Positions 40,477 to 49,791 of a DNA stretch of 64,000 nt are shown here, piece after piece (the first letter of the stretch is position 1; the number at the start of each line of letters is the position of its first letter). Below the pieces are notes generated by a model. It was given only the letters and a program-made list of their open reading frames with translations. It made no database searches and was not told the DNA's origin. The position numbers and the translations under genes were made by a program. Origin of the DNA: a phage. The DNA is taken from sequence record MZ956761.1; one strand, written 5' to 3'.

Positions 40477-40734
40477 ATGAAAACTTTCAAAGAGTTTGCT
40501 ACAAAAACTATTATCACTGAATCTTCTCATGGTATGGAAGTAAAGCTTGGAATGGCTTTAGCTGAAGCTGAGCGTCTTTTCTCTCGTATTAAAGAACTTG
40601 CTGCTGCAGTCGATCCTTCATCTTTTAAAGGAGACCAAACGAAAGTTAAAGCGCTTTTAGCATTATGCTCTGATGCAGGCGAAATCGCTAAGAACGGTTC
40701 TAAGATGAAGAAACGATTAGAAGATTTAAAATAA
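40477..40734 (+). CDS. internal-protein-like small protein with capsid-targeting tag
   Basis: 85 aa; N-terminus MKTFKEFATKTIITE resembles the T4 IP tag with gp21-type (L/I)xE cleavage site. Confidence 0.55.
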   Translation: MKTFKEFATKTIITESSHGMEVKLGMALAEAERLFSRIKELAAAVDPSSFKGDQTKVKALLALCSDAGEIAKNGSKMKKRLEDLK

Positions 40735-40746
40735 TTTCACAAAGTT

Positions 40747-40785
40747 GTTTACACGGGGTTTTAGTAGTGATACTATTACCCTATC
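40747..40785 (+). promoter_or_regulatory. early promoter with stem-loop (PeSL-like), copy 2
   Basis: Near-identical 40-bp repeat of copy 1, offset 330 bp. Confidence 0.5.
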
Positions 40786-40812
40786 AAAACAAATGTGAGA
40801 TTGGAGAATAAA

Positions 40813-41046
40813 ATGAAAACTTATCAAGAATTTATTGCTGAAACTGCTGATGTAAAAGTTGAGTTTATTTATACTGACAAGAAAGATAAAATGGGTGAAA
40901 TGCCTCATGGAGTTCTTCGCGATGCATTAGATAATTTCGGTCAACTCGCTGCAGAAGATTACGGTGATAAAATTGTTGTTACTGGTCCTGCTGCAGTTAT
41001 TGAAAAATGGGCAGCAGAAAATAAATCAATTTTTCGTAAAAAATAA
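40813..41046 (+). CDS. internal protein (IPI-like) with MKTYQEFIAE tag
   Basis: 77 aa from the Met of MKTYQEFIAE; track ORF starts 6 codons earlier at GTG. Confidence 0.6.
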   Translation: MKTYQEFIAETADVKVEFIYTDKKDKMGEMPHGVLRDALDNFGQLAAEDYGDKIVVTGPAAVIEKWAAENKSIFRKK

Positions 41047-41085
41047 GTTTACTTTTAGATAGGGTAGTGATACTATTACCCTATC
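41047..41085 (+). promoter_or_regulatory. early promoter with stem-loop (PeSL-like), copy 3
   Basis: GTTTAC-N18-TACTAT with inverted repeat GATAGGGTA/TACCCTATC around the -10. Confidence 0.5.
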
Positions 41086-41104
41086 AACTACTGAGGAGAA
41101 TAAA

Positions 41105-41290
41105 ATGAAACGTTGTGAATTAATTCGAAATGTTGCTATTGCAATTTCTGCTTCTGCTTTTAGTTTTTCAATGTTTGTTGGATTTATATGCGGATTATTG
41201 ACTACAGCAGAAAATGTTTTTTCACTTGTAGTAGCATTTTTAATTGGTTTAATTGCTATCGTTATGGATAAAATTTCTAAAGGTGAATAG
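41105..41290 (+). CDS. small two-helix membrane protein
   Basis: 61 aa, two hydrophobic stretches; GAGGAG SD. Confidence 0.45.
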   Translation: MKRCELIRNVAIAISASAFSFSMFVGFICGLLTTAENVFSLVVAFLIGLIAIVMDKISKGE

Positions 41291-41701
41291 ATGAGTATTA
41301 ACGAATATTATGTTTATGCTGGGGATTATGCAAATCCTTCTCATTTTGAAGGTAATTTAATACCTGATAAAGTTTTTAATACTCCTTTTGAAGCGTGGAG
41401 TTGGATTGAAAGTAAAAATGGATTTTCTTACCGTTATGTTGAAGTAACTGATTGGAGAGGAACTAAATATCCTAAAGACCATTATTACGTAAATCCATCT
41501 AAGGTAAATTTTCTTTTATTCGCAGGTGATAATTATTACCCTTGTGGTGGATATGATGATTTAATTGCGTATGCTGAAACAGAAGATAAACTGCGTGATA
41601 TCATTAAAGAAAATGAAAATAAACCAGATTATGGTTCTAATCGCTTTGACTGGTGGCAAATCGTAAATGCCCATACTCATGCTATTGTTGATAGAGGTTG
41701 A
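41291..41701 (+). CDS. hypothetical protein
   Basis: 136-aa ORF, start overlaps previous stop. Confidence 0.5.
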   Translation: MSINEYYVYAGDYANPSHFEGNLIPDKVFNTPFEAWSWIESKNGFSYRYVEVTDWRGTKYPKDHYYVNPSKVNFLLFAGDNYYPCGGYDDLIAYAETEDKLRDIIKENENKPDYGSNRFDWWQIVNAHTHAIVDRG

Positions 41702-41991
41702 TAATGATACTTTATGCGAAAGTATCGTCCATTGAAAATGGATATAAATATGATCAAGAAGCAGCTAAAGCCTTGATTGATGATTATGGCATTTTAACAT
41801 GTTTTGAAGTTGAAAAGGTTTACATTGATCGTTCATCTTCTCAAGTTAAATTAGTGAAGGAAGACCGTAAATTTAATACAGTAAATTTTGATTTCTTTAT
41901 TGAAACAGAAAAAGGTCCTCTTGAATATGATATTTTCAAGAATCCTTTGAGTCTTGAATGTATCGTAAATACGTATCATCATAAATGGTAA
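41698..41991 (+). CDS. hypothetical protein
   Basis: 97-aa ORF, ATGA overlap with previous gene. Confidence 0.5.
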   Translation: MIMILYAKVSSIENGYKYDQEAAKALIDDYGILTCFEVEKVYIDRSSSQVKLVKEDRKFNTVNFDFFIETEKGPLEYDIFKNPLSLECIVNTYHHKW

Positions 41992-42088
41992 ATATGCTTT
42001 AAGAATTATTTGTTATTATTAACTCATACCACACTGATTAATACCCTCTATCATCAAGGGTTCTTGTTAGAGAGCCTTTGTTAATAAT

Positions 42089-42161
42089 TGGGAATTAGCC
42101 AAGTTGGTAAGGCATAGCACTTTGACTGCTAGATGCAAAGGTTCGAGTCCTTTATTCCCAG
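42089..42161 (+). tRNA. tRNA-Gln (anticodon TTG)
   Basis: Hand-folded cloverleaf: acceptor TGGGAAT/ATTCCCA, T-loop TTCGAGT, anticodon loop CTTTGAC. Confidence 0.7.
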
Positions 42162-47944: not shown

Positions 47945-48381
47945 AAACACTATCAGCTGGTATTATCTTTATGACAGAAGATAAAGATTTATTTATGGGT
48001 CGGGTTACTGGTTCTCGTAAGCCTGGAATGATGGCACACCGCTGGGATATTCCAAAGGGCCGTGTAGAAAATTCTGATTTAAGCGCATTAGATGCAGCAC
48101 GAAGAGAATGTTTAGAAGAGACTGGTTTTAGCAATTATAATCCAGACCTTCTAGAAGACCTAGGTGTATTTAAATATTCTAGTAATAAAGACCTACAGTT
48201 ATTTTATTATACGATTCCAGTAGAGCATGAGATGTTTAGAAATTGCCATTGCGAGTCTTATTTTGAAAATAAAGACGGTGTTATGATTCCAGAGATGGAC
48301 GCTTTTGCTCTTATTCCTCGTACTCAGTGGCAATATGTGATGGGTCCTTCACTTTACCGAATAATGAACAACCTCTTTTAA
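47926..48381 (+). CDS. nudE: NudE Nudix hydrolase
   Basis: 151 aa; Nudix box GRVENSDLSALDAARRECLEETGF; start could also be the Met at 47941. Confidence 0.8.
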   Translation: MQEIKMKTLSAGIIFMTEDKDLFMGRVTGSRKPGMMAHRWDIPKGRVENSDLSALDAARRECLEETGFSNYNPDLLEDLGVFKYSSNKDLQLFYYTIPVEHEMFRNCHCESYFENKDGVMIPEMDAFALIPRTQWQYVMGPSLYRIMNNLF

Positions 48382-48383
48382 TT

Positions 48384-48404
48384 TATAAATACCTTCTATA
48401 AATA
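48384..48404 (+). promoter_or_regulatory. tandem T4-type late promoters for gene e
   Basis: Two exact TATAAATA copies (48384-48391, 48397-48404) upstream of e. Confidence 0.55.
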
Positions 48405-48417
48405 CTTAGGAGGTATT

Positions 48418-48912
48418 ATGAATATATTTGAAATGTTACGTATAGATGAAGGTCTTAGACTTAAAATCTATAAAGATACAGAAGGTTATTACACTATTGG
48501 CATTGGTCATTTGCTTACTAAAAGTCCATCACTAAGTGTTGCTAAATCTGAATTAGATAAAGCTATTGGGCGTAATTGCAATGGTGTAATTACAAAAGAT
48601 GAGGCTGAAAAACTCTTTAATCAGGATGTTGATGCTGCTGTTCGCGGAATTCTGAGAAATGCTAAATTAAAACCAGTTTATGATTCTCTTGATGCTGTTC
48701 GCCGCTGTGCATTAATTAATATGGTCTTCCAAATGGGAGAAACCGGCGTAGCAGGATTTACTAATTCTTTGCGTATGCTTCAACAAAAGCGTTGGGATGA
48801 AGCAGCAGTTAACTTAGCTAAAAGTAGATGGTATAATCAAACACCTAATCGCGCAAAACGAGTCATCGCTACGTTTAGGACTGGCACTTGGGATGCGTAT
48901 AAAAATCTATAA
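48418..48912 (+). CDS. e: T4-type lysozyme (endolysin)
   Basis: 164 aa; [35 protein letters not shown] recognised as T4 lysozyme. Confidence 0.95.
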
Positions 48913-48916
48913 AGTT

Positions 48917-48946
48917 GTTTACTTTCTCCTAGAATTGTGATAGTAT
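48917..48946 (+). promoter_or_regulatory. T4-type early promoter
   Basis: GTTTAC-N18-TGaTAGTAT upstream of the internal-protein gene. Confidence 0.45.
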
Positions 48947-48983
48947 ATTCACAGTTACTAATTAAAATATTTAAAGGAAACAC

Positions 48984-49301
48984 ATGAAAACGTATAAAGA
49001 ATTTATTGCAGAATCTGCTGCAGGACAACGTGTAGAAGGCGGTTATATCTGGATTGAACAAGTTGAGCCGCCGAGTCGCACTTCTACGGGTAAATGGAAA
49101 ATCACTGTTGATGGTCCTGGTGGTAAACGTAGGACTCTTAAAGAAATTAACGGGTACTATGAAGAAGCTCTTTCTGACGCGGGTACTTATATGATGCAAA
49201 TCATGATTAAAAACCCAGAAAATCGTTTTGCGGCTAGAGTTTTCCGCCGTATTGGAAATAAGCTTTATGATGCATATTCTAAAAACTTTCCTAAAGAATA
49301 A
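48984..49301 (+). CDS. internal head protein (IPII/IPIII-type)
   Basis: 105 aa; N-terminal MKTYKEFIAE capsid-targeting tag. Confidence 0.7.
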   Translation: MKTYKEFIAESAAGQRVEGGYIWIEQVEPPSRTSTGKWKITVDGPGGKRRTLKEINGYYEEALSDAGTYMMQIMIKNPENRFAARVFRRIGNKLYDAYSKNFPKE

Positions 49302-49317
49302 AAATTAAAGGATACAC

Positions 49318-49791
49318 ATGAAAACATATCAAGAATTTATTACTGAAGCAGCTATTAATTCTCAAATTATTGCTGAATCTTTTACTGATCTTTTGAAATT
49401 TAAAAAAGGTCAAAAAATCACTGCTGTATTGGATGATGGTACAGAAGTTGAGATGGATGTACAGGGATATAATTATGCAGTAGATGGAAAACTGTATAAT
49501 AAATCTCATGCTAAATTTGATTCATTTGACGACTTTGTTAATACAGTTGAAGATGAAAAAACTCGTAGATCCATTGCAACTGGTGATGCTAAGGTTCTTA
49601 TGGCACATGGTCATGAACGCATTCGCGCTAAACAGAATAAAATGGGTGAAGATAATTTTGCATTAGTTGGTTATCAATCTGGTAAACAAACTTATGGCTA
49701 TCAGCGTACTGCTACCATGTATAACAAAAATGGTAAAATCGCTTTCGTGAATAGCAAAGGCTCTATTCAGTACGTCAAATCATTCAAATAA
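49318..49791 (+). CDS. internal head protein (IPII/IPIII-type)
   Basis: 157 aa; N-terminal MKTYQEFITE capsid-targeting tag. Confidence 0.7.
   Translation: MKTYQEFITEAAINSQIIAESFTDLLKFKKGQKITAVLDDGTEVEMDVQGYNYAVDGKLYNKSHAKFDSFDDFVNTVEDEKTRRSIATGDAKVLMAHGHERIRAKQNKMGEDNFALVGYQSGKQTYGYQRTATMYNKNGKIAFVNSKGSIQYVKSFK

Follow-up and report, generated by a model that had tools for sequence, protein, structure and literature searches.

In phage T4, the first ~10 residues of an internal protein precursor form the capsid targeting sequence (CTS); through it the precursor has affinity for the gp22-based scaffolding core during prohead assembly. This tag ends in an L/I-x-E motif, behind whose Glu the protease gp21 cleaves, and the mature, mostly basic protein stays beside the DNA inside the head until both pass into the next host. 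Polymorphic Ip ORFs of T-even phages were reportedly described by Repoila, Tetart, Bouet and Krisch in EMBO J in 1994, and an internal protein is said to have been characterised by Bair et al. in 2007 as a specific inhibitor of a GmrSD type IV restriction enzyme. Enzymes of the GmrSD type attack glucosyl-hmC DNA and, to our knowledge, their known inhibitors share no sequence.

Three ip genes are annotated in T4, the number given in an earlier sequence-only reading of the DNA studied here. The leader is MKTYQEFIAE in both IPII and IPIII, and MKTFKEF...ITE in IPI, with the cleavage site at ITE19. Targeting depends mainly on residues 4 and 7 and processing on residues 8 and 10, the gp21 motif being L/I-x-E (PMC9026906). 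Each of Ip1, Ip2 and Ip3 inhibits its own GmrSD type IV restriction enzyme (Silas et al. 2025, PMC12373910), and according to a passage of the same paper that cites Repoila et al. 1994, Ip polymorphism in T-even phages has been known since then. LC-MS/MS of purified virions of phage phiR1-RT identified IpII, IpIII and also g134, a tag-bearing ORF away from the two classical loci; the virion preparation also held non-structural proteins, e.g. DNA polymerase and thymidylate synthase (PMC6893735), and the support that g134 lends to packaging is therefore weakened. A second relevant system is that of the promoter/stem-loop (PeSL) cassettes, by which ORFs are moved about in genomes of the T4 type (Arbiol et al. 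2010, PMC2839356; Comeau et al. 2014, PMC4122927).

The DNA analysed is a 64-kb stretch, hereafter the window, of Escherichia phage ADUt (Tequatrovirus; record MZ956761.1), which it matches at 100% identity. Five genes on the plus strand, starting at 40477, 40813, 43863, 48984 and 49318 and grouped in three loci, had been proposed to carry the T4 capsid targeting sequence at their N-termini, and all five were found as ORFs in this arrangement, with N-termini matching the starts of T4 IPI, IPII and IPIII. Genes A and B lie between 57B and trna.4 (the ipI locus), gene C between the tRNA/rnaC cluster and e.8, and genes D and E directly 3' of the lysozyme gene e. The genes for gp21 and gp22 are situated in the same window.

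40477..40734, plus strand: gene A, Ip5 (IpV) by homology, 85 aa; phrog_3499 'internal head protein' (E=8e-50)
40813..41046, plus strand: gene B, Ip6 (IpVI) by homology, 77 aa; phrog_8111 'internal virion protein' (E=2e-51)
43863..44336, plus strand: gene C, RB32ORF132c type, 157 aa; phrog_2280 'unknown function'
48984..49301, plus strand: gene D, Ip10 by homology, 105 aa; phrog_3966
49318..49791, plus strand: gene E, Ip4 (IpIV) by homology, 157 aa; phrog_3155 'internal virion protein'; Pfam DUF7412 (E=6e-96)
9342..10151, minus strand: gp22 scaffolding core protein, the structure thought to receive tagged cargo; Pfam T4_CASP (E=9.5e-90)
10182..10820, minus strand: gp21 prohead core serine protease, the expected leader-removing enzyme; Pfam Peptidase_S77 (E=1.5e-111)
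11245-11502, minus strand: gp67

An ORF at 1139-1369 on the minus strand, with the start MLLEFKQFLYE, was considered as gp67 and rejected, its context and Pfam match identifying it as UvsW.1.

The strict tag pattern MK[ST][YF]x[EQ]F was matched by five of the 589 Met-initiated frames of at least 40 aa in a six-frame scan of the whole window, against 0.002 matches expected from residue frequencies and none in 100 shuffles. A looser pattern, MK[ST][YF].[EQDK]F, scanned in the same six frames, returned the same five ORFs and no further ones, so that the earlier estimate of at least five candidates becomes exactly five for the window. Residue 4 is Y or F and residue 7 is F in every case, and a gp21-type L/I-x-E motif stands at all five leader ends (ITE15 in A, IAE10 in B, LNE10 and LNE15 in C, IAE10 in D and ITE10 in E). 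All five have an RBS and a promoter or operon context, and they are kept as ORFs in 190-512 phage genomes.

Over codons 1-10, 27-28 of 30 nt in genes B, D and E agree with T4 ipII or ipIII, and directly after this stretch identity falls to about 22-30%. The mature parts are mutually unrelated, as had been judged by eye: the best pairwise BLASTP E-value was 0.74 (database of 8 sequences), and the five genes fall into five different PHROG families. An alignment of the mature parts with T4 IPI, IPII and IPIII, proposed in the sequence-only reading, gave no relationship, with a best BLASTP E-value of 0.064 (database of 8 sequences). The three T4 proteins belong to phrog_4363, 7857 and 5341, and none of these families occurs among the five ADUt genes. 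The proposal that the injected set is expanded relative to T4 thus stands as a count, five genes against three, and falls as a description, since the families of IPI, IPII and IPIII are absent; judged by family membership, the ADUt set is a replacement plus an addition and not an expansion of T4's set. To say that there are more than in T4 is true, and is the polymorphism already described by Repoila et al. 1994.

In other respects the ADUt genes resemble those of T4. Genes B, D and E carry an MKTYQEFIAE-type leader and gene A the longer IPI type, each with an L/I-x-E site; two of the loci (57B to trna.4, and 3' of e) are the same, as are the promoter blocks upstream, and the predicted mature products are mostly small and basic. 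Unlike T4, ADUt has five such genes at three loci. The predicted mature parts of A, C, D and E have a pI of 9.1-9.6, and that of B is acidic. Pfam and NCBIfam gave no significant match for genes A to D, E alone being matched (DUF7412), and no sequence or fold relative of known function was found in PDB sequence searches (gene C profile, D and E), Foldseek searches (gene C) and family searches.

Three early-type promoter-like blocks accompany the genes at the two classical loci.

40417..40446, plus strand: sigma-70 promoter-like block 5' of the Ip5 gene (GTTTACA, 17 nt, TACTAT), from a consensus scan
40748..40776, plus strand: second copy of the block, 5' of the Ip6 gene
48917..48946, plus strand: promoter-like block 5' of the Ip10 gene (GTTTAC, 18 nt, TAGTAT)

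The first of these aligns with the region 5' of T4 ipI and the third with that 5' of T4 ipIII. Because of 1-nt indels, the upstream regions look less alike in an ungapped comparison than they are, and the MAFFT alignment is the better guide.

The leader of gene A is the IPI-type long MKTFKEFATKTIITE, with predicted cleavage after E15 leaving a mature protein of 70 aa and pI 9.2. The gene is an 'internal (core) protein' in the source record; an ORF of equal length (258 nt) at this locus bears the name Ip5 in RB51 and ipV in PST, a homologue is ip5 in VR25, and homologues occur in 497 phage records. Gene B, with the leader MKTYQEFIAE and a predicted mature protein of 67 aa, is named ip6/ipVI in VR7 and PST and has homologues in 246 records. 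Its mature part, at pI 5.7 the sole acidic one among the five, is unlike the classical basic internal proteins and is a point against placing it with them.

Gene D has the leader MKTYKEFIAE and a predicted mature protein of 95 aa and pI 9.6; it is ip10 in PP01 and VR25, the source record calls it 'internal head protein', and there are homologues in 190 records. Gene E (leader MKTYQEFITE; predicted mature protein 147 aa, pI 9.1) is Ip4 in RB51 and ipIV in PST, with homologues in 471 records. It starts 16 nt past the Ip10 stop codon, and because of this short gap the two genes are probably co-transcribed. PDB sequence searches with D and E returned no relatives.

Homology assigns genes A, B, D and E to the known Ip5, Ip6, Ip10 and Ip4, and the source record annotates all four as internal proteins. 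Like the other members of the Ip4-Ip10 series of T-even phages, they are arranged in cassettes whose 5' blocks are conserved. Both classical loci were found to harbour an Ip5-type mature domain, with different leaders. In most related contigs that include all three loci, the tag-bearing genes within 10 kb of gene e number three to five. Unlike the Ip4-Ip10 genes, gene C is situated outside 'the two Ip loci', and the literature searched contained no description of the site between the rnaC terminator and e.8 as an ip locus; position is, however, a tendency among these genes and no strict requirement.

Gene C has the leader MKSYAQFLNE-AVLNE, with two LNE sites, followed by a predicted mature part of pI 9.4 that comprises a helical N-domain, an Ala/Pro/Lys-rich linker, which its relatives also have, and a helical C-domain. 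Its 512 homologous records were annotated 'hypothetical' in 40 of 40 sampled, and no sampled record used an Ip name; among the named members of its cluster there is a single 'Internal head protein' label, on a Klebsiella homologue. An alignment of 12 family members, the most distant at 24% identity, shows no change at M1 or F7, almost none at L8, and always Y or F at residue 4, the tag residues being conserved as strongly as the core motifs of the protein. A Glu-terminated site is kept in relatives that are 24-48% identical (Klebsiella, Yersinia, Serratia and Cronobacter phages), and distant members of the phrog_2280 family extend to Serratia, Cronobacter and Kanagawavirus-type phages. One or two family members occupy the site, in versions of 153-157, 187 and 201-205 aa that have their own 'FL' variant of the tag. 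The AlphaFold2 model of gene C had a mean pLDDT of 81.6 with an alignment and a poor 68 from the single sequence; Foldseek searches of the model against PDB and BFVD matched only its own family and generic helical bundles, with no functional lead, and a PDB search with the gene C profile found no relatives. A full-text search for RB32ORF132c/ORF132c returned no relevant paper, and the literature searched yielded no Tequatrovirus virion proteome in which internal head proteins were named. The phiR1-RT ORF g135 was considered as a homologue and rejected on its translation, and tblastn of a 22-kb phiR1-RT stretch around these loci detected no member of the gene C family.

The surroundings of gene C form a cassette with the following elements.

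43786..43821, plus strand: left copy of a 36-nt direct repeat that includes a terminator-like hairpin (AGCCCCGACCGAAAGGTTGGGGCT and then TTTTT), ~50 nt 3' of the rnaC homologue
43819..43826, plus strand: T4 late-promoter consensus TATAAATA, 37 nt 5' of the gene C start codon
44341..44376, plus strand: right copy of the 36-nt direct repeat, 35/36 identical to the left copy at a spacing of 555 nt

The cassette thus measures 555 bp and consists of the late promoter and the ORF between duplicated 36-nt terminator hairpins, the promoter overlapping the end of the left repeat. The arrangement of late promoter and gene C recurs in most contigs with the family, including L004-L007, L016, L018, L019 and L024. 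T4 has a single copy of the 36-nt hairpin at the same junction with identical outer flanks, i.e. an empty site, and we read the gene C cassette as an insertion at this hairpin, behind the tRNA/rnaC cluster. As in PeSL cassettes, the gene stands between two copies of a G/C-rich stem-loop of which T4 has one, the topology proposed for PeSL-mediated excision and insertion. The ADUt cassette differs from PeSL, which has a sigma-70 early promoter, in its late promoter TATAAATA, and in that its repeat is the terminator of a tRNA/stable-RNA cluster. No early-type promoter was found at the cassette, whereas A, B and D do have such promoters. Gene C is under a late promoter only, and 4 of the 10 residues of its leader are non-canonical; both features speak against its inclusion with the classical genes.

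The reading that we prefer is that the five ADUt genes are very likely precursors of T-even head internal proteins, four of them known Ips and the fifth a phrog_2280 member at a third polymorphic locus. The CTS of the five precursors would bind the gp22 core of the assembling prohead, gp21 would remove the leaders after the Glu of L/I-x-E, and the mature proteins would be packaged with the DNA and injected into the next host. Packaging, cleavage, injection and targets are what we infer for the ADUt proteins, in the case of gene C from its sequence. Gene C is probably an unlisted internal protein, and the balance tips slightly towards a third polymorphic ip locus in T-even-type phages generally, a terminator-bracketed late-promoter cassette site behind tRNA/rnaC that is used by the phrog_2280 family.

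It may be asked whether the shared N-termini have this meaning at all. The motif is short, and such starts could in principle arise by chance or as an artefact of ORF calling; the probability of this is negligible, given that five matches were found where 0.002 were expected, that 100 shuffles gave none, that all five have an RBS and a promoter or operon context, and that the ORFs are retained in 190-512 phage genomes. For gene C in particular, the tag-like N-terminus could be a patch of recombination homology (promoter, RBS and leader) on a protein with a late cytoplasmic role and no place in the head. Homology among ip genes does end exactly at the end of the leader, as it would at a recombination joint, and gene C is outside the two loci of the literature and has the most divergent leader of the five (20 of 30 nt identical to T4 ipIII). 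We regard this explanation as unlikely, as a relic would be expected to decay, yet M1, F7, the aromatic residue 4, the Glu-terminated site and, almost always, L8 are kept at 24-48% identity, in distant relatives whose DNA no longer resembles the classical leader. Moreover, in the MAFFT alignment the DNA 5' of gene C shows no homology to the block that precedes the classical ip genes, so the likeness is one of protein and not of a shared DNA patch.

A further explanation accepts packaging but takes the proteins to be mainly structural or DNA-condensing parts of the core, acting in charge neutralisation or on the rate of head assembly, and not anti-defence effectors. The basic character of four of the five mature parts (pI 9.1-9.6) and the Ala/Pro/Lys-rich linker of gene C and its relatives are consistent with such a role, as are the slower head assembly of T4 IPIII mutants and the contacts of internal-protein lysines with DNA (PMC9026906, PMC3012670). 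It is nevertheless doubtful as the main role, although slightly less so than the cytoplasmic role for gene C: T4 mutants without internal proteins are viable (PMC9026906), all three T4 Ips have specific GmrSD targets (PMC12373910), and the swapping of unrelated folds at the same loci is more in keeping with an arms race than with a generic structural role. Structural and anti-defence roles are not mutually exclusive.

An anti-defence role for the ADUt proteins would rest on analogy. They resemble the GmrSD inhibitors Ip1-Ip3 in their putative delivery route (tag, head and injection), in the host range of the phage group and in hmC-glucosyl DNA chemistry, ADUt itself encoding an alpha-glucosyltransferase and a second glucosyltransferase; they have no sequence or fold similarity to Ip1-Ip3. 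Since the known GmrSD inhibitors have no common sequence, homology cannot decide the function of the ADUt proteins. By this analogy, the ADUt set would most likely be a different assortment of single-target anti-defence proteins.

Internal proteins arrive with the DNA and therefore act ahead of any phage gene expression, and as the three characterised Ips each defeat one type IV enzyme, the Ip set helps to determine which wild strains can be infected and so matters when therapeutic phages are chosen. Four of the five ADUt genes were known already, so the bulk of the finding is ordinary; the useful part is a candidate tagged family at a third site, widespread and 'hypothetical' in nearly every database entry seen. 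The tag could be used for the re-annotation of hundreds of genomes, and the gene C family could be put through a screen with GmrSD variants and other defences. A similar start was seen in T4 gene 61.1, a 54-aa ORF beginning MKTFKEFIKE; if the reading of gene C is true, its locus and gene 61.1 would make the injected repertoire of T4-like phages larger than three proteins in T4 and about 10 overall at two loci.

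The sequence-only reading had pointed to five genes in three loci that share a T4-type N-terminal capsid targeting sequence (the tag or leader). All five were recovered as complete ORFs. The region around them (window 40300-50000) matches Escherichia phage ADUt (OQ466432.1), a Tequatrovirus from hospital wastewater in Turkey, at 100% identity, and numerous further T-even phages at 94-96%.

Tag-bearing genes of the window, all on the plus strand
40477-40734 (+): gene A, Ip5 (IpV), phrog_3499, homologues in 497 phage records
40813-41046 (+): gene B, Ip6 (IpVI), phrog_8111, homologues in 246 phage records
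43863-44336 (+): gene C, 157 aa, "hypothetical" in the source record
48984-49301 (+): gene D, Ip10, phrog_3966, homologues in 190 phage records
49318-49791 (+): gene E, Ip4 (IpIV), DUF7412/phrog_3155, homologues in 471 phage records

When all six frames of the 64 kb were searched with the pattern MK[ST][YF]x[EQDK]F, exactly these five genes matched and there was no further hit. The stricter MK[ST][YF]x[EQ]F fitted 5 of the 589 frames that start with Met and span 40 aa or more, with 0.002 matches expected by chance from residue frequencies and none seen in 100 shuffles, and a Shine-Dalgarno sequence precedes each of the five ORFs. T4 IPII and IPIII begin with MKTYQEFIAE and IPI with MKTFKEFTSTTTPVSTITE. 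Residues 1-10 of IPIII suffice for incorporation into the head, residues 4 and 7 being the main targeting determinants and residues 8 and 10 those for processing; gp21 cleaves after the Glu of L/I-x-E, and IP propeptides are 10-19 residues long (PMC9026906). In each of the five predicted proteins, residue 4 is Y or F and residue 7 is F, and the gp21-type site for which the sequence-only reading had suggested looking is present in every leader (IAE10, ITE10, LNE10 with LNE15, and ITE15 in gene A, whose leader is of the IPI type). The window also contains the genes for the protease gp21 (Peptidase_S77) and for the scaffold protein gp22. The UvsW.1 homologue (Pfam UvsW-1; 1139-1369, minus strand) begins with MLLEFKQFLYE, a loose likeness to the tag that is probably coincidental.

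Genes A, B, D and E are already labelled as internal proteins in the source record. Their mature parts and that of gene C are mutually unrelated, as had been judged by eye, with a best BLASTP E-value of 0.74 in an 8-sequence database and assignment to five different PHROGs, and BLASTP and PHROG comparison found T4 IPI, IPII and IPIII (phrog 4363, 7857 and 5341) to be absent from ADUt. Over their first ten codons, B, D and E match T4 ipII or ipIII at 27-28 of 30 nt; beyond that point identity is about 22-30%. The early-type promoter block 5' of the ip genes is likewise common to ADUt and to T4 ipI and ipIII, and it is duplicated ahead of A and B. This cassette structure of common upstream block plus leader is reportedly credited to Repoila et al. 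1994. The Ip5-type mature domain (phrog_3499) of gene A also occurs directly 3' of gene e in related T4-like contigs (L006-L009, 10486-10767), there behind a different, two-site leader (MKTYSEFLSE-SILNE), a sign that mature domains are shuffled between loci and leaders. The second site, x-[VI]-L-N-E, recurs across several unrelated ip genes.

The claim that the set is expanded relative to T4 held in part. ADUt has five tag-bearing genes and T4 three; however, in 20-kb stretches around gene e of T4-like IMG/VR contigs, those with all three loci mostly carried three to five tag-bearing ORFs and a few one to three, so that five is typical and T4 stands at the low end, with its own IPI-III absent from ADUt. 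Published work agrees: it puts the number of Ips at "at least 10", identified through their signal sequence and located in "two Ip loci" (PMC12373910). The original observation is confirmed and its interpretation was essentially right, and most of it is a rediscovery of well-documented T-even biology. The novelty is modest and lies in a tag-bearing family at a third site, almost never annotated in databases as an internal protein, and in a tag-like ORF at T4 61.1.

Gene order in the window follows the T4 minus-strand order (1, 57A, 57B, ip locus, trna.4-.2, tRNA cluster, rnaD/rnaC, e.8 to e.2, nudE, e, ip locus). The tRNA cluster (42089-43110) holds 11 genes (Gln, Leu, Gly, Pro, Ser, Thr, Met(CAT), Tyr, Asn, His, Arg) versus 8 in T4, and lacks an annotated segB homing endonuclease gene. 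Homologues of the T4 stable RNAs rnaD (111/118 nt identical) and rnaC (137/139 nt) lie at 43477-43738, overlain in the ADUt record by two "hypothetical protein" CDSs (43533-43682 and 43688-43849) that are probably spurious. Gene E is followed, at the site of denV in T4, by a 195-aa ORF (49897-50484, plus strand) with a P-loop-like GGRQSGKS motif; the ADUt record, whose permutation point falls at window position ~50110, stops within this region with the label "putative endonuclease", and the window runs on past that point.

Gene C, of the RB32ORF132c type that RB51, AR1 and PP01 also carry, belongs to phrog_2280, of unknown function. Homologues occur in 512 records, of which 40 were sampled, and all 40 gave them as "hypothetical"; among the named cluster members examined, one from a Klebsiella phage was called "Internal head protein", and the RB51 counterpart is annotated only as "flanked by 34 bp imperfect direct repeat". 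Gene C is bracketed by two copies of a 36-nt repeat that includes a terminator-like hairpin; the copies are 35/36 identical and spaced 555 nt apart. In T4 a single copy is present, ~50 nt past rnaC and with identical outer flanks, so that T4 represents the empty site; in PST no gene is annotated there. A late promoter, TATAAATA, lies inside the cassette 37 nt 5' of the ATG. The site is occupied in most sampled T-even-like contigs, sometimes by two tandem tag-bearing ORFs (the 157-aa type, then a 187-aa type), and in Mosigvirus-like and other contigs by versions of 201-205 aa, all of phrog_2280.

Taken together, the sequence features make it fairly probable that gene C encodes a head-targeted protein and occupies a third polymorphic ip locus. 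The chief competing view, that the tag is a recombination relic with no role in targeting, is weakened because the likeness persists at the protein level in distant relatives and because the DNA 5' of gene C shows no relation to the classical ip block. In an alignment of 12 family members (down to 24% identity; phages of Klebsiella, Yersinia, Serratia and Cronobacter), M1 and F7 were invariant, L8 nearly so and residue 4 always Y or F, a Glu-terminated site ahead of the mature N-terminus was kept throughout; conservation of these tag residues was comparable to that of the core AWKS motif. With a pI of 9.4, the mature part is basic. An AlphaFold2 model (pLDDT 81.6) places a disordered Ala/Pro/Lys-rich linker between two helical domains, with low confidence for the leader; a PDB sequence search and Foldseek against PDB and BFVD returned no relative of known function.

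No virion proteome of any phage with gene C was found in the literature. Proteins identified in purified virions of Yersinia phage phiR1-RT include IpIII (78% coverage), IpII (68%) and g134, for which LC-MS/MS gave 2 peptides and 21% coverage (PMC6893735, Table S3). The latter is a 52-aa hypothetical protein encoded among tRNA genes (L054 10421-10579, minus strand) with the N-terminus MKTYIEFINE. These detections give weak, indirect support, since the preparation also included obvious non-structural proteins.

With regard to function, each of T4 Ip1, Ip2 and Ip3 is an inhibitor specific to one GmrSD type IV restriction enzyme and gives no cross-protection, and all Ip-locus proteins have been proposed to target variants of this system (PMC12373910). 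ADUt has genes for two glucosyltransferases, an alpha-glucosyltransferase and another enzyme of 280 aa (OQ466432.1 25392-26594 and 38203-39045; 12393-13595 and 25204-26046 in L055); its DNA therefore presumably carries glucosyl-hmC and is exposed to the same enzyme class. The second enzyme is shorter than T4 beta-gt, which may point to glucosylation of the T2/T6 type, a pattern that would influence the range of type IV enzymes attacking the DNA. From the T4 specificities and the presumed modification, it is reasonable to suppose that the five proteins would act as anti-restriction effectors; a structural or DNA-condensing contribution is also possible.

Outside the window, ADUt has a sixth tag-like ORF of 54 aa just upstream of the primase gene 61 (OQ466432.1 43911-44075; L055 30912-31076, plus strand), beginning with MKTYKEFIKE|DMVAGDSGG.... 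T4 gp61.1 (L057 1967-2131, minus strand) begins with MKTFKEFIKE, so T4 may have a fourth CTS-like gene; both ORFs carry a hypothetical label (phrog_1823, unknown function). ADUt also carries two tandem Alt-like ADP-ribosyltransferase genes (L056 42130-44223 and 44227-46284; OQ466432.1 105129-109283), both with the N-terminus MELITELFD, which may represent two packaged Alt paralogues.
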